DNA of 64,000 nt from Cytophagales bacterium (GTDB lineage Bacteria > Bacteroidota > Bacteroidia > Cytophagales > Spirosomataceae): the NCBI GenBank assembly GCA_031411995.1, contig JANOCD010000057.1:28461-92460 (forward strand), in the 5' to 3' direction. Position numbers and translations under genes: made by a program. Below are positions 35,163-40,951 of this stretch, in pieces; the first letter of the stretch is position 1, and every line of letters starts with the position of its first letter. The notes beneath the pieces are model-generated. The model was given only the letters and a program-made list of their open reading frames with translations, was not told the origin of the DNA and did not search any database.

Positions 35163-36428
35163 TTACCGAATCTGCCCGTCGCCCACAATGACCCACTTTT
35201 CGGTCACTAATTTTTCGAGCGCGAATGGCCCCCTTGCATGGAGTTTTTGGGTAGAAATGCCAATCTCGGCTCCCAAGCCAAAAACACCCCCGTCGGTAAA
35301 ACGAGTTGAGGCATTGGCGTAAACGGCGGCAGCATCTACTTCATCCAAAAAGCGATTGATGTTGGTCTGATTCGATGAGATAATGGCTTCGGAATGCCGC
35401 GACGAATACAATTGAATATGCTCAAGAGCTTCGTCGATGTTGGCCACTACTCGAACAGCGCATTTGTAATCCAAAAATTCACGGCCAAAATCGGCGGGTT
35501 GAGCGGGTTGCAGGTTGGCATAACCGGCTCGTTGCAGAATAGCGAAGGCGGTTTCGTCGGCAAAAACCTCCACACTATAGTCATTGAAGCCGGGCATTAA
35601 CAGGGGCAAAAAAGCACCAGCCACAGCCGCATCAACCACCACACAATCGAGCGCGTTGCAAACCGAAGGGCGCGTTACTTTGGCGTTCACCACAATGGCG
35701 GCTGCCATTGCCAGATTAGCCGATTTTTCGACGTAGGTATGACAAACGCCCGCACCCGTTTCAATAGTGGGTACAAGCGAATGTTTGCGCACAAACTGAA
35801 TGAGCGAATCGGAGCCACGCGGAATAATAATGTCAACGTAGCGGGTTGCCGTCAGCAATTCATTCACCACTGCCCCGCGTTGTCCGTCGGCATCGAGGGG
35901 CAACAACGTCACGGCTGCTTCGGGTACATCGAACGCGGCCAACGCCTGCTGAATGAACCCAACCAACACCCGGTTTGAGAAATCGGCCTCTTTACCGCCC
36001 TTCAGCACACAGGCATTGCCCGACCGCAAACACAGGGCAGCCACGTCGATGGTCACGTTGGGCCGCGACTCATAGATGGCCCCAACTACACCCAGCGGCA
36101 CAGCCAGCTTACGCAGTTTCAGGCCTTTATCAATAGTTTTCTCCAGCAGTACAACGCCCGATGGATCAGGTAAATTAGCCACATCGTTCAGGCTTTTAGC
36201 CAAATCAGCCACGCGGGCTTCGGTCAGGCGGAGCCGGTCTTTTTTGGGGTCTGAATCAGGAATACGGTCGAGATCACGCTGATTCTCGGTCAGAATCTGA
36301 TCCGTATGATGCAGCAACAGATCAGCCAGATAGGTTAGCAAAGCTGCTTTTTGCTCATCGGGCAATTGCCGAACTGCCGAAGCAGCCTGTTTGGCTTGCT
36401 GTAGTAGAGGAGTAATGGTATTGGTCAT
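35163..36428 (-). CDS. proA: Gamma-glutamyl phosphate reductase
   Basis: PLGVVGAIYESRPNVT, IPRGS, CNALD, NASTRFTDGG, GISTQKLHARGP. Confidence 0.96.
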   Translation of the reverse strand: MTNTITPLLQQAKQAASAVRQLPDEQKAALLTYLADLLLHHTDQILTENQRDLDRIPDSDPKKDRLRLTEARVADLAKSLNDVANLPDPSGVVLLEKTIDKGLKLRKLAVPLGVVGAIYESRPNVTIDVAALCLRSGNACVLKGGKEADFSNRVLVGFIQQALAAFDVPEAAVTLLPLDADGQRGAVVNELLTATRYVDIIIPRGSDSLIQFVRKHSLVPTIETGAGVCHTYVEKSANLAMAAAIVVNAKVTRPSVCNALDCVVVDAAVAGAFLPLLMPGFNDYSVEVFADETAFAILQRAGYANLQPAQPADFGREFLDYKCAVRVVANIDEALEHIQLYSSRHSEAIISSNQTNINRFLDEVDAAAVYANASTRFTDGGVFGLGAEIGISTQKLHARGPFALEKLVTEKWVIVGDGQIR

Positions 36429-36443
36429 AGAGGTTGTACAAGT

Positions 36444-37835
36444 TTAAGCAGCTTCCTCCAGAGATGACACTACTTCTGAACCGACGGATGTAAAAATAGG
36501 AAATATCACCGTCATCACGGTTCCTTTTCTCTCAACCGAATCCACCTTAATCTGACCCCGGTGCATGGTCACGATTCGTTGGGTCAGAGCAAGACCAAGA
36601 CCTATTCCTTTAACAGTCATCACATTATCGGCGCGGTAGAATGGCTCAAAAATATGAGGCACATCAGCCGCCGGAATCCCAACGCCTTTATCCGTAAAGC
36701 TCACCCGCATTTGGTTGGGCGTGAAGGATAAGGCCACGGTCACGCTTTTATCAGGAGAAAACTTACATCCGTTTTCCAGTAAATTCTCAAAGGCGGTTAT
36801 GAGCAGCGGTTCTTCGCCCGACAGGATTAGGTCTTCTTCTTGTTCGGGCATACTTTCAAAATCAATATCTACCTGATAATCAGGAAATTTTGACAGTAGA
36901 TTAGCTCGTGCCTGCCAGAGCAGCTCGTCGATCCGAACCGGCTGATACACAAGCGTTATGGCATCCGAATTTGCTTTAACCAGATCAATCAGCCCATTCA
37001 CCAGGCTAATCATACTCTTCACCGTATCGAGTAGATCTGTTAAAGCAACCTCATAGTCGGCTGTGGTTCGGGTTTGCATCAGAGCCACCTCAATCTGACT
37101 CATCATTACCGCTAACGGGGTGCGTAGTTCGTGCGAAGCGTGCGACACAAAGCTTTTCTGGCTGACGAAGGCCACTTCGAGCCGCTGAAGCATATCATTG
37201 AACGTAGCGGCCAATAGAGACAGTTCGTCGCGTTGCCGACCCACCCGCAGCCGGTGGTGAATATTGGTGGCTGAAATAGCTTTTGCCTGCTCAGTAAGTT
37301 CGGCTACCGGCCGGAGGGCATCGCTGGAAAACAACCAGCCTGCCACTCCCACCACTACCAAACTCAACAGCCAGCCAAAGAACAATATTTCGCGAAGCCG
37401 GTCGAGTTTATTAAAGCCCAACCGGTCATATCCCGATGATACTGCCAGATAGGTCTGTCCGTTCGTGTCGAAGCAAACGCCAACCGCTTCGAGCGAATCC
37501 TTACGCATCCGCAACAGACGACCTTCCCTCAATTGCCGCCTGATGGTTGGTGTAATCGGAAAAACAGGATTTTTAGGTTTACTCCGGTATATTTCCTTAT
37601 CCTGTTTATCGTACACGATGACTTGTTCTGCAAGCATCGTTGCCAAATCATCGCGCGGAGTCAGTTTGGACTTGTTGAACAGTTGAGCCGTCAAAATGGC
37701 TTTGTTCTCCAGACGCTGTTGGAATTCGTTTTCGCGGTACTGATTATATAGGTAATATATGGACAGCGAAAACAACAGCATGATGGAAGCCACCAGCAAC
37801 GTGAACAACAGGGTCAGACGAGTCCGAATGTTCAT
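36444..37835 (-). CDS. HAMP-domain sensor histidine kinase
   Basis: Two TM helices, HAMP, SHELRTPL, DKGVGI, GIGLGL. Confidence 0.92.
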   Translation of the reverse strand: MNIRTRLTLLFTLLVASIMLLFSLSIYYLYNQYRENEFQQRLENKAILTAQLFNKSKLTPRDDLATMLAEQVIVYDKQDKEIYRSKPKNPVFPITPTIRRQLREGRLLRMRKDSLEAVGVCFDTNGQTYLAVSSGYDRLGFNKLDRLREILFFGWLLSLVVVGVAGWLFSSDALRPVAELTEQAKAISATNIHHRLRVGRQRDELSLLAATFNDMLQRLEVAFVSQKSFVSHASHELRTPLAVMMSQIEVALMQTRTTADYEVALTDLLDTVKSMISLVNGLIDLVKANSDAITLVYQPVRIDELLWQARANLLSKFPDYQVDIDFESMPEQEEDLILSGEEPLLITAFENLLENGCKFSPDKSVTVALSFTPNQMRVSFTDKGVGIPAADVPHIFEPFYRADNVMTVKGIGLGLALTQRIVTMHRGQIKVDSVERKGTVMTVIFPIFTSVGSEVVSSLEEAA

Positions 37836-38509
37836 TCCTCTTTAAGCATATATCCCATTCCAATGACCGTATGGATCAGTTTTGTGGGAAATTCTTTATC
37901 GACTTTCTTTCTCAGAAAATTCACATAGACATCAATAACATTGGTTCCTGTATCAAAGTGTATATCCCAAACTTTTTCAGCAATATCCACCCGTGAAACC
38001 ACCCGTCCCCGGTTGCGCATCAAATATTCTAACAAGCCAAACTCTTTGGCTGTCAACTCAATACGTTTTCCACCCCGACGGGCTACCTTCTCATTAAGAT
38101 CCAGTTCGAGATCACCAACTTTGAGTACATTGGTTTGTGGGCCGGAGTCCTGCCCTCGTTTATGTAATGCCTTCAAGCGGGCCATTAGCTCCCGAAACTC
38201 AAATGGTTTCACAAGGTAATCGTCAGCTCCCGACTCGAACCCAGTGAGTTTATCTTCCACCGATCCCATTGCGGTCAGCATCAGTACGGGCGTTTTAACG
38301 TCTTCCTGTCGGAGCGACTGCACCACGTCGAAACCATTCATTTTTGGCAGATTGACATCCATCACAATCACATCGTAGGTGTTGCTTAATGCCATTGTGC
38401 GGCCGATTTGGCCATCGAAAGCCATTTCGACTTCGCACTGCTGTTCTTCCAGCCCTTTCTTAACAAATGATGCCAATTTTGGCTCATCTTCAACTACAAG
38501 TACCTTCAT
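37832..38509 (-). CDS. OmpR-family response regulator (CusR/CzcR-like)
   Basis: VVEDE, MDVNLP, GADDYLVKPF, NVIDVYVNFLRKK; start trimmed to MKVLV. Confidence 0.93.
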   Translation of the reverse strand: MKVLVVEDEPKLASFVKKGLEEQQCEVEMAFDGQIGRTMALSNTYDVIVMDVNLPKMNGFDVVQSLRQEDVKTPVLMLTAMGSVEDKLTGFESGADDYLVKPFEFRELMARLKALHKRGQDSGPQTNVLKVGDLELDLNEKVARRGGKRIELTAKEFGLLEYLMRNRGRVVSRVDIAEKVWDIHFDTGTNVIDVYVNFLRKKVDKEFPTKLIHTVIGMGYMLKEE

Positions 38510-38661
38510 AATAGTTCCGCGAGAAGACTCCCTCACCTGAGCGGGGATATTTATAAGCGTAACTTACAAGTCTATTCTGCCTTTTACAAGAAAACGTATC
38601 AACTACTTATTTAATGTTCTTTTTCTAACTCAAAAAACAACGATTCGTGGCGTTATGACAC

Positions 38662-38838
38662 AAAAAAGCCGTTGAAGACTCTTCAACGGCTTTCCGCTTC
38701 TATCCACACCATTTCAAGGCTGCTACCTAGAGGTAACAAGACCTTGATGTTCAACCTTCCCTTTGTAAAGGATCTTTATGCTAACTTGCAGTAATTACTT
38801 AGTTTAAAACCGACGCTCTTAGGTCGTCCCGTTTCGTT
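38662..38838 (-). ncRNA. Candidate structured small RNA A (5' end approximate)
   Basis: Several short hairpins, shared motif AAATGGTGTGGATA-N4-CGGAAAGC, terminator aaagccgttgaag/cttcaacggctttttt; upstream CACCTTTG near-consensus -7 box. Confidence 0.55.
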
Positions 38839-38921
38839 GAAACAAAGGTGTAGTACCCGAATTAAACGCACGTTAACCATGAATTAAAATGTACTAAATA
38901 CCGGGCATTTATACCATAAAC

Positions 38922-39072
38922 AAAAAAAAGCTACTCGGGAGGTCCCAAATAGCTTTCCGACTATATCCACACCATTTAAAAACAGCCCATGAAAAGGCTG
39001 TTTACCGTTGCACTGTGAAAGTGCTATATTTTGAGACCAATAAGATTGGCTACAAGACCATTTTTTATTCGA
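38922..39072 (-). ncRNA. Candidate structured small RNA B (5' end approximate)
   Basis: TATATTTG -7 box at 39078-39085, three hairpins, same shared motif, terminator aaagcta...tagcttttttt. Confidence 0.55.
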
Positions 39073-39432
39073 CAGGGCAAATATAAAGAATTGCAAACAA
39101 TTTAATCAACAAATGGTACTGTACGGCCAAAGTTTTCCACCCATCTGAACCGCTATAGACATTTATTGCTTACAAATATAATTAAGTAAAAACTAGTAAA
39201 TATACTCAATATTTTGTTTAAAAGCTATCCTGACGTATAAACTCTCTACTAAAATTCCTGTCTTCATTCTGTTTGATTCTAGCATCGTGTTATTCCCATT
39301 GCCTATGCTAAGTAGGTCAAATACCTCAAAAGTTCCAAATGAATTTATTATCCGGTATCAACGGCACTGTCTCACAGGTATTTAATTACCGGTTGTATCT
39401 ATGTAAAGCCTTTAAATAAACTTATCAAAACT

Positions 39433-40270
39433 ATGCACCTACCTGTTTTCAACCAGTGTTAAATTTTCTACAACCGTCTACTCAACGTGAGGGTGTCGGC
39501 CAGCGGATGCCAGTGGCGCTTATACCAACTACAGTTCGCCCAAATTTCTGCTCATCACAAACTCTAACAAAGAGGGCACCAACTGGATGAAGGAAATTTT
39601 CACATCGGCACCAATGCAAAACCATCAGTTGGGGGTTACGGACGGTAACGAGGGTGGTCGGTATGCCCTGTCGCTCAACTACTTCCATCAGCAGGGTATT
39701 GACCTGATGATTAATTATGCTGACCGGATTGGCAGCACTGCCCTAAGCCAAAATGTTGGCGTAAACTACGGCTCTTACCGCAACACCGTAACGAAAATCA
39801 CCGGGCATGCCAACACGCAGTATTTCGGCATTAACGACAAGCAGATTCAGAAATTCGTGGTGACTCATCAGGACTTCCCGATCTCTTCGTTTTATGGCTA
39901 TACAATCGACGGGATTTTCCAGACCAACGAAGAATGAAAAGCCCACCCGGTTCAGTTTGGCAATGCCGCCAGCGAAAACGTAGCGGGCCGGTTCAAATTC
40001 CGAAATAACAACGGCGACGGAGTGATATACTCTAAGTATCAGACCATTATTGGTAATCCCCATCCTGATTTTACGTATGGTATTAACCTTGGTCTGAACT
40101 ACAAAGACTTTGGTTTGACCGTGTTTGGACAGGGCGTTCAGGGTAACCAGATTTTTAACTCCCTGAAATACTGGACTGATTTCTCGACTTTCCTCGGCAA
40201 TCGCAGCACCAGGATGGTCTATCAGTCGTGGAGGCCCGGCAGCACCGATGCCATTCTGCCCTAACTACGG
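39433..40270 (+). pseudogene. Collapsed SusC/RagA TonB-dependent transporter remnant
   Basis: GTNWMKEIFTSAPMQNHQLG, SSFYGYTIDGIFQT-stop, GRFKF, NGDG, IGNPHPDFTYG, GQGVQGNQIFN; stops, frameshifts, large deletions; 5' boundary uncertain. Confidence 0.8.
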
Positions 40271-40271
40271 G

Positions 40272-40951
40272 CCGCCCCTTTATCCCCGCCCACAATAAGC
40301 TCGGAACGATATGTTTCCAATAATTCAGGCGCAATCGTTACATCATGATGACTGGTTGCCACCAAAATATGAACGGGTACGCCCTCGGTGGTCAACATCA
40401 GGTGAAGGCGGAAGCCGTAAAAGTCTTCCTTTTTAGCCGTACAGTGGCCGTACATTTCCTTATGAGCAACCCCAAACTCAGCTGCCAGCGTATGCTGCCT
40501 ACCGGCTCTGGTATAGCCACAGACGGGCAGTGGCATAATATCCATGATATACCAAATCTAGCGGATGATGCCCAGTTCACAAAGCAGCATTTGTCGCATG
40601 AGATTGGTTAGTTTGAACAAAATTTTACTACGCCTATCAAAGAGACTACGCTCAATAAGTTTAGGAAACAAACGATAGTAATTATGTTTAACGACGTTAT
40701 ATTAAGCTGCTTCTGAGTTAGTTACCATGTGATTGTCCTAAGTCAGCGTAATGACTTCACTATCCATGAAGGTGGGTTACGGGCCGGGTCTATCCACGAA
40801 TGAGTGGACTTTTTGGTAAAATTCATCGACGTAGTAGAAGATAATGGTCAGCATATCTTCGAGGGTTCCCCTTTCCAGTGTATCTTTGAGTGACTCGATC
40901 ATGGGATATCTGTGTTTTGGTTTGGCGACCTATAAATACCCCTTTTCGGGT
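40272..40951 (-). mobile_element. IS982-family insertion sequence remnant, transposase pseudogene, 3'-truncated
   Basis: Translated pieces LTIIFYYVD..DSEVITL, LFPKLIERSLFDRR, DIMPLPVC, FYGFRLHL, SHHD, GDKG; in-frame stops; left end ACCCGAA at 40951; no right end found. Confidence 0.8.

Follow-up and report, generated by a model that had tools for sequence, protein, structure and literature searches.

The window analyzed here, a 64,000-nucleotide stretch of contig JANOCD010000057.1 of a Cytophagales bacterium of the family Spirosomataceae (assembly GCA_031411995.1; C57:28461-92460 in a source genome of 7.7 Mb), carries on its minus strand a tandem pair of short units that very probably are genuine small RNA (sRNA) genes belonging to an uncatalogued family restricted to the Spirosomataceae, bacteria of soil and water. 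The two units, denoted A and B, have in common the motif AAATGGTGTGGATA-N4-CGGAAAGC, which is found at 38714-38689 in unit A (AAATGGTGTGGATAGAAGCGGAAAGC) and at 38977-38952 in unit B (AAATGGTGTGGATATAGTCGGAAAGC); both positions, and the spacing of 263 nucleotides (nt) between the copies, agree with an earlier reading of this DNA made from the sequence alone. With <=3 mismatches allowed, exactly 2 matches occur in the window compared to 0.01 expected, and 2 were reached in 0 of 100 shuffles. Each motif leads into a G+C-rich hairpin and a subsequent T-run (38695-38662 in unit A and 38958-38922 in unit B), which bears out the terminators with a GGAAAGC stem base that the sequence-only reading had proposed. 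Both units fold with greater stability than their dinucleotide shuffles (z = -3.55 for unit A and -4.37 for unit B), and the centroid structures of both units, folded alone, leave the motif unpaired.

The bases at the center of the motif define two paralogue types, GAAG in type A and TAGT in type B, each of which is common to several genera. Thus, the fixed bases and their conserved spacing were described correctly, but the four spacer positions are not the free bases they had been taken for. Unit B, of type B, is preceded by a predicted promoter (39109-39078) that combines a -33-like TTG (39109-39107) with a perfect Bacteroidota -7 box, TATATTTG (39085-39078), as judged from the sequence and a by-eye alignment with a Runella type B promoter. 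The predicted RNA is about 150 nt long (39071-38922, spacer UAGU), its 5' end being placed by the -7 box and its 3' end by the T-run. Immediately 5' of the seed motif, AAAUGGUGUGGAUAUAGUCGGAAAGC (38977-38952, with 38977-38959 predicted to be unpaired), lies the hairpin AAACAGCC...GGCUGUUU (39003-38979), which is the only hairpin kept in type B, and in some genera only, namely, in the type B copies of Rudanella, Larkinella and Arsenicibacter, with loop and U-G changes. The intrinsic terminator (38958-38922) consists of the GGAAAGC stem base, a variable upper stem and the T-run, and was recognized both by a terminator check and by covariation in 15 homologues.

Unit A, of type A, is preceded by three phased direct repeats, TTAAT-N6-TTAAC-N6-TTAAT, with an 11-bp period (38887-38861), a candidate response-regulator box, and by a -7-like box, CACCTTTG, of the form nAnnTTTG (38850-38843), which was identified from the sequence and from comparison of type A genes. 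If transcription starts after this box, the RNA (38836-38662, spacer GAAG) would be about 175 nt long; the core that is conserved family-wide begins near 38790, so that the 5' end may lie either near 38836 or near 38790. Within the core, the consensus fold of 28 homologues places a stem-loop P1 (UCCUUU-ACA-AAGGGA; 38772-38758), followed by the conserved unpaired linker GAAGGUUGAACAU, a second stem-loop P2 (UCAAGG...CCUUGA around a variable hairpin; 38747-38714) that is supported by double changes, the seed motif AAAUGGUGUGGAUAGAAGCGGAAAGC (38714-38689, with 38713-38696 predicted to be unpaired), and the intrinsic terminator (38695-38662), in which the upper stem shows double changes in 11-12 of the 28 sequences. 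All the hairpins listed in the sequence-only reading are present in the sequence, but the one formed by ttga and tcaa in unit A finds no support among relatives because its tcaa arm is part of the covarying P2 stem.

The conservation of these elements is that of a structured RNA with an exposed segment. The core of the motif, AUGGUGUGGAUA, is invariant in all members seen and is unpaired in the consensus as well as the centroid folds. In the terminator helix, 9 of the 13 pairs show double changes among 15 homologues and 92% of the cells pair; the observed covariation score was reached in 0 of 500 column shuffles and is lost when the pairing register is shifted. The type A consensus, derived from 28 non-identical sequences, has the same order as unit A, that is, P1, unpaired GAAGGUUGAACAU, P2, unpaired seed and covarying terminator. 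The sequence of P1 (UCCUUU/AAGGGA) is nearly invariant, so that covariation is uninformative for this stem, and P2 is maintained through double changes, from AU to GC in 9 of the 28 sequences and from GC to AU in 6 to 10 of them, while enclosing a hairpin of free sequence. Covariation, the check that had been suggested for the putative structures, is thus found in both the terminator stem and P2 of type A. At a length of about 175 nt, the type A RNA would additionally have a 5' hairpin of variable sequence and a short stem, UGCN...NGCA, whose support is weak. At the other extreme, some Runella copies are minimal and consist of only a promoter, the motif and a terminator; 10 nt separate the end of the perfect -7 box TATATTTG from the motif in these copies, which implies an RNA of about 55-60 nt made of seed and terminator alone. 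A reading of the motif as part of a small open reading frame (ORF), for example, in the MVWI or NGVD frames, was considered and rejected: the homologues differ by indels and by compensatory stem changes, and the 55-nt Runella versions likewise exclude a conserved small ORF.

At the gathering thresholds of Rfam 15, no match was detected in the whole window, in accord with the earlier failure to recognize a named family; at E-values up to 10, the local 1 kb yielded only chance, terminator-like matches, such as one to Qrr (18.8 bits compared to a threshold of 50), and four homologous loci, from Runella, Spirosoma, Larkinella and Fibrella, gave no Rfam match either. A search of the literature on small or structured RNAs in Spirosoma, Spirosomataceae or Cytophagales found no relevant description. 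Searching for the motif in the genome and across the order revealed a multi-copy RNA family rather than a dispersed DNA repeat, the outcome that would have spoken against the units being sRNA genes. In a first sample of 40 relatives, the motif was present at 0-1 mismatches in 9 of 37 genera, and a reversed control pattern was hardly ever found. Scanning named genomes for the exact pattern retrieved 117 stretches, all from Spirosomataceae (Spirosoma, Fibrella, Larkinella, Runella, Rudanella, Fibrisoma, Fibrivirga, Arsenicibacter, Nibrella and related metagenome-assembled genomes). A covariance model (R1) of the motif and terminator, built from 15 homologues, scored unit A at 79.4 bits (E = 1.5e-17) and unit B at 75.3 bits (E = 2e-16), and found matches of 57-79 bits in most Spirosomataceae genera, often several per genome, so that the homologues number in the hundreds. 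In an order-wide sample of 201 genomes, no match with the motif was detected in the 187 genomes from outside the Spirosomataceae; only two matches were found there, both weak, and the one that was inspected is a bare terminator lacking the motif.

Lower-scoring members of the family carry other spacers (ACGT, the 5-nt UAUGU, AAAG and more), with AUGGUGUGGAUA constant throughout, and a genome contains from 2 to more than 5 copies, of types A, B, ACGT, N5 and others. These copy numbers are lower bounds because the motif pattern missed a second copy, with a different spacer, that lies between the type B copy and the regulator gene in Larkinella (AAUGGUGUGGAUAGGAUGAAAAAAGC; loci L089, L101, L113, L128, L138-L140) and in Arsenicibacter (...GAAGCAGAAAGC; L130, L154). 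Several paralogues, then, have a single potential pairing region in common, as is typical of sibling-sRNA circuits.

On sequence, each unit combines a promoter and an intrinsic terminator of its own with the lack of a conserved ORF, as expected of an independent gene, and is predicted to be transcribed as such. Upstream of type B genes, a perfect TAnnTTTG -7 box, the same that the sequence-only reading had pointed out in unit B, is found in 45 of 48 non-redundant cases, at class-specific distances from the motif of 10, about 50-63 or about 95-104 nt; in unit B of the window, the distance is 101 nt. The near-match box noted earlier in unit A coincides with the position of the type A box: a sequence of the form nAnnTTTG precedes nearly all type A genes and, in several genera, lies 65-73 nt upstream of P1 (24 of the 37 genes in which the box was found), a position from which a length of about 175 nt follows for the type A RNA. 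The TTAAY repeat also recurs. The pattern TTAAY-N5-7-TTAAY occurs on the sense strand in 27 of 131 upstream regions of sRNA genes, compared to 1 on the other strand and to a mean of 3.4 and a maximum of 9 in block shuffles, and it ends 10 or 21 nt before the -7 box; for a stricter TTTAAT repeat, the count is 25 against 2. Activator sites of the OmpR/PhoB type are classically built in this way, as direct repeats of 11-bp period that take the place of the upstream promoter element. The promoter of unit B, accordingly described, would be of the canonical housekeeping type, and that of unit A a weak -7 box behind three phased TTAAY repeats. From this likeness in layout, the probable activator of unit A is the CusR-like response regulator whose gene lies immediately downstream.

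The gene for this regulator (37832..38509, minus strand) encodes an OmpR-family protein with Response_reg and Trans_reg_C domains (Pfam) and is the syntenic partner of the sRNA genes; it is followed by a sensor kinase gene with HAMP, HisKA and HATPase domains (36444..37835, minus) and by proA (35163..36428, minus), the third same-strand gene downstream of unit A. The best models for the regulator and the kinase are of the heavy-metal CusR/CopR and CusS types, respectively, both below their cut-offs (257 bits compared to 279 for TIGR01387, and 204 compared to 293 for the CusS-like kinase). In many genera, a same-strand gene for an orthologue of the regulator (80-95% identity) follows an sRNA copy at a distance of 90-960 nt; this is true of 43 type A and 21 type B copies, and at all of these loci the kinase gene comes next on that strand. 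As a rule, one copy or more, often a pair in tandem, precedes the regulator and kinase genes. Tandem copies were seen in Rudanella, Larkinella, Arsenicibacter and Fibrella, and the A-like second copies between type B and the regulator in Larkinella and Arsenicibacter indicate that a tandem pair in front of the regulator is widespread. The Runella copies and the Fibrella pairs are not located next to the regulator.

Between the last terminator and the start of the regulator gene lie 37-412 nt that contain a conserved block of their own, in which CGTTTTT is fixed at -38 in 15 of 36 cases. In Spirosoma, the block reads CGTTTTTAAATCAG, fixed at -38 of the ATG; in Rudanella, it reads AATAAGTAGTT..ACGTTTTCTTGTAAAA, with the equivalent in the window at 38560-38620 (minus strand), and homologous gaps are present at L016, L050, L098 and other loci. 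The k-mers AATAATT and CGTTTTT are common to the regulator gap and the regions upstream of type A genes, the background in coding sequences being 2 of 36 stretches, and hint at common control of type A genes and the regulator; the block itself may be an operator that serves both. In Spirosoma arboris (L098:10-1908), a gene for an RND-type efflux protein, CzcA/CusA-like by eye, ends about 130 nt before a type A sRNA gene, which is followed by the CusRS-like pair, a neighborhood that hints at a system handling metal or envelope stress. Upstream of the pair in the window, there are a 94-codon ORF (40261-40545, minus strand) that encodes a fragment of a DDE transposase (PF01609, E = 2e-5) and two short ORFs (39587-40264, plus strand) that, by eye, appear to be C-terminal pieces of a SusC/TonB-dependent receptor and have no Pfam match. 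With these transposase and receptor-like fragments, the 3-kb region preceding the sRNA pair has the appearance of DNA that has decayed or been rearranged.

What could the exposed seed recognize? We scanned 5737 crudely defined gene 5' regions (-120 to +150) of the same genome for complementarity, and sites for the seed proved to be enriched at the 5' ends of mRNAs. With the seed of unit B, duplexes of -28 kcal/mol or stronger form at 11 sites in the sense and 2 in the antisense orientation, and at -30 kcal/mol, the respective numbers are 7 and 1; 12 control seeds (the reversed one and 11 shuffled ones) yielded 0-3 sites at -28 and 0-1 at -30. When mismatches are counted without regard to G-U pairs, there are 7 non-self sites with <=6 mismatches out of 26, compared to 0 for the reversed motif, and 6 of these 7 are in the sense orientation at positions -110 to +35 relative to an ORF start, where about 7% would be expected by chance (an estimate from the share of the 5' regions in the genome). 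The sites precede or overlap the starts of genes for two LuxR-type response regulators (C18:72922, spanning the ATG, and C114:256960, at -110), a TPR/HisKA_3/HATPase kinase (C134, spanning the ATG), a LytTR-domain protein (C23, spanning the ATG), another LytTR-domain protein (C34, with two tandem sites, one over the ATG), and two further ORFs without a Pfam domain (at -106 and -60). Five of the 7 sites are thus at LuxR, LytTR or HisKA_3 regulators, and four cover the start codon. This association is far beyond chance because regulators of these classes account for only about 60 loci in some 5800 ORFs (tblastn), that is, roughly 1-2% of the genome. At C34:12652-12744, outside the window, the tandem seed complements are GCTTTTCGACTATATCTACCCC and GTCCACACCATG, and the second covers the ATG of the LytTR gene. 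This region had scored as a candidate third sRNA copy (model E = 0.006) and was rejected, being the reverse complement of the motif, with target-like sites. The conserved linker GAAGGUUGAACAU of type A was likewise considered as a second seed and rejected, as its complementary sites are no more common than those of the reversed control. Pairing of the seeds and of the type A linker with the adjacent mRNA of the regulator, kinase and proA reaches only background energies, -21 and -16 kcal/mol, respectively.

Among the internal mismatches of these sites, transitions in the target strand that are compatible with G-U pairing (A to G, C to T) outnumber the reverse ones by about 10 to 1-2 (a hand count, p ~0.02-0.06), a bias more in keeping with pairing between RNAs than with a site on DNA. 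In Fibrella (2 of 3 paralogues) and in Spirosoma, the homologues of the C23 LytTR gene have a site of -31 to -37 kcal/mol that spans the ATG, the rest of the 5' untranslated region (UTR) having diverged. Furthermore, the LuxR and LytTR genes at C18:72908-72933 and C23:27072-27097 and those at loci L246, L265 and L276 start alike, with ATGTCCACACC (Met-Ser-Thr-Pro) following (C/T)TTTCCG, as though each of these unrelated regulator genes had received a short 5' cassette matching the sRNA. In another genus, g51, the island TATCCACACCAT is located 26 nt before the ATG of a gene in two species, where the 5' UTR has otherwise diverged; at the two g51 loci, L305 and L306, the conserved island reads TTTCTATCCACACCATACTTCT and marks a candidate target of the family outside the genus of the window. 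By eye, we take this gene to be TonB-receptor-like, with a CarboxypepD_reg-like N-terminus.

The explanation that we favor, with roughly two chances in three as a whole, is that units A and B are separately terminated genes of trans-acting sibling sRNAs that act antisense on the mRNAs of regulators, unit A being driven by the neighboring regulator. Under this scheme, unit B (~39071-38922) and unit A (from ~38836 or 38790 to 38662) would be two separate genes, and each RNA would expose the invariant single strand AAAUGGUGUGGAUA, then 4-5 type-specific bases and CGG, on the 5' side of a Rho-independent terminator. The single strand would pair with the 5' UTR and start-codon region of the target, blocking access of the ribosome, and the best candidate targets in this genome would be the two LuxR-type response regulators, the TPR/HisKA_3 kinase and the two LytTR-domain regulators; unit A would be switched on by the adjacent CusR-like response regulator via the TTAAY repeats. 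Of the two interpretations offered by the sequence-only reading, that of paralogous sRNAs presenting a conserved seed is the one supported, by the homologues, the invariant unpaired core, the covarying stems, the promoters and terminators, and the enrichment of target sites. Confidence is high that the family is real and functional; its existence, conservation pattern, structure and synteny, and the enrichment of complementary sites, all emerge from the comparisons. Confidence in the antisense mechanism over the start codons of regulator mRNAs is moderate, and lower in the control of the sRNAs by the neighboring regulator, to which synteny and the phased repeats point.

Several observations weigh against this explanation. 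A perfect -7 box precedes no more than 11 of 65 type A genes, and the strict TTAAY repeat pattern is present in only 21% of the sRNA upstream regions. The 3' part of the motif, GGAAAGC, is the base of the terminator stem, so that pairing over the full length of the seed would require that the stem be opened. The invariance of the seed throughout the family contrasts with the accessory nature of the best candidate targets: no orthologue of the C114 regulator above 42% identity turned up in 30 relatives, the C23 LytTR gene was found in only a few genomes, and sites of the C18 and C23 types are absent from the same-genus genomes G001-G003. The exact complement of the core 12-mer occurs outside canonical sRNA genes in 49 of 101 genomes (89 hits compared to 25 for the control), but no universal target gene emerges among these hits, some of which are other sRNA variants. 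Transcription, the transcript ends, including the 5' ends, repression and control by the regulator are all predictions. Finally, tblastn searches of the genome detected no homologue of Hfq, ProQ or CsrA, and no RRM_1 protein was found, under a search that does find one in Bacteroides thetaiotaomicron as a control; the long duplexes may do without a helper or may depend on one of another sort.

The same lack of Hfq, ProQ, CsrA and RRM_1 proteins speaks against what is, among the alternatives, the best placed but nonetheless unlikely one, namely, that the RNAs are real and act mainly through binding of a protein, as a sponge or a chaperone-dependent ligand, at the invariant GGUGUGGAUA...GGAAAG. 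Such binding would account for family-wide identity over 12-13 nt in the absence of a universal complementary target; the motif, moreover, holds two GGA triplets, and the FopS/GibS sRNAs of B. thetaiotaomicron do bind the RRM protein RbpB (PMC11697453). Protein binding alone, however, leaves unexplained the excess of sense-oriented complements at 5' ends and start codons as well as their conservation in the LytTR homologues of three genera.

Slightly less probable still is the other interpretation of the sequence-only reading, under which the units are tandem leaders or attenuators in cis that decide between termination and read-through into the regulator, kinase and proA genes, with the single strand binding the deciding factor and the short RNAs being by-products. 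The placement of one or two copies directly upstream of the regulator-kinase pair, on the same strand, at 64 loci in several genera, and the short distance from terminator to regulator start, are as this interpretation would have it. Yet many members lie away from the regulator, among them the Runella copies of types B and ACGT and the Fibrella pairs, the minimal Runella copies leave no room for an antiterminator fold, and two full units in tandem, each extending from promoter to terminator, are not an attenuator layout. Neither the constant position as leader of the regulated gene nor the mutually exclusive terminator and antiterminator folds that characterize attenuators and riboswitch leaders were found; the conserved block with CGTTTTT at -38 belongs to the regulator gap itself, and the downstream operon has no strong complement of the seed, the best energy being at background. 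Action of the 26-bp motif as DNA, either as an operator of a transcription factor or as a short dispersed repeat next to ordinary terminators, might seem to be indicated by the promoter-proximal near-copies at -110, -106 and -60 and by the resemblance of the core to what we take to be a DnaA-box-like sequence, TATCCACA, but is highly improbable given that the motif always lies between promoter and terminator and in a single orientation in the sRNA genes, appears at the other genes only as the reverse complement with respect to the gene (6 of 6), runs across the ATG into coding sequence in several copies, shows the G-U-compatible bias of transitions, and is flanked by stems that covary, as expected of RNA.

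Trans-acting sibling sRNAs linked to a two-component system, the explanation preferred here, are a known kind, and it is the family itself that is uncatalogued. By architecture and phylum, the closest case is FopS/GibS of B. thetaiotaomicron, fourteen paralogues in which a single-stranded seed is followed by a terminator, which repress translation of susC near the start codon and are bound and modulated by RbpB (PMC11697453). The two families come from the same phylum and consist of multi-copy paralogues with Bacteroidota-type promoters in a background without Hfq or ProQ (PMC11697453; PMC7366714), and the conserved single-stranded seed directly before a Rho-independent terminator recalls the minimal Runella copies. 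In contrast, most of the Spirosomataceae copies have the seed 3' of extra 5' hairpins, the families show no similarity in sequence or Rfam model, and the targets differ, SusC-type transporters for FopS as opposed to candidate LuxR, LytTR and kinase regulators. The Spirosomataceae family is also distinguished by its link to a two-component system and by a genome without an RRM protein. Neither a shared seed or Rfam model nor an association with RbpB, the marks of FopS/GibS membership, was found; because there is no shared sequence, Rfam model or RRM partner, and the candidate targets are regulators, we consider this to be a new family rather than FopS.

The enterobacterial OmrA/OmrB sRNAs, too, are adjacent tandem paralogues with an identical pairing region and a divergent remainder (reviewed among sibling sRNAs in PMC4211561). 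They are activated by EnvZ-OmpR, whereas here control by an OmpR-family regulator is a candidate suggested by synteny and phased repeats; they also differ in being Hfq-dependent and in pairing via their 5' ends, and are unrelated in sequence. Regulators are among the targets of OmrA/OmrB, as they are among the candidates here; in Escherichia coli, these targets include ompR itself, in contrast to the seed of the Spirosomataceae family, for which no complement was detected in the mRNA of the adjacent regulator. The csRNAs of the CiaRH regulon in Streptococcus (PMC3091779, PMC4507080) and the Qrr sRNAs of Vibrio likewise are sets of several highly similar sRNAs per genome that have a single conserved pairing region in common, are under the control of one response regulator and target mRNAs of regulators or signal precursors at the translation initiation region. 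They belong to other phyla and have other promoters (sigma-54 in the case of Qrr) and other seeds, Qrr requires Hfq, and the Qrr model of Rfam reached only the subthreshold 18.8 bits here. The circuit logic of the Spirosomataceae family would thus resemble that of OmrA/OmrB, the csRNAs and Qrr, operating without Hfq and with a regulatory link that is predicted.

It is tempting to go further and to view the family as the dedicated RNA output of the CusRS-like system, a chaperone-free hub that silences other signaling regulators (LuxR-type response regulators, HisKA_3 kinases and LytTR proteins) through unusually long start-codon duplexes of 20-26 nt, but we regard this extension as doubtful. 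On that view, the presence of a matching response module, a 5' UTR with an ATG-TCC-ACA-CC (MSTP) start, on unrelated regulator genes would suggest that target sites are gained by movement of a short 5' cassette. To our knowledge, post-transcriptional control in Bacteroidota outside the gut Bacteroides is almost unexplored, and the family described here provides a testable system: it is easily recognized and conserved family-wide, and has a defined seed, a syntenic two-component system and a short list of candidate targets. If the explanation favored here holds, the annotation of hundreds of genomes would be improved by a new Rfam family, and the tandem sRNA genes of the Spirosomataceae would show how two-component systems are wired through RNA in a phylum that lacks the classical RNA chaperones.

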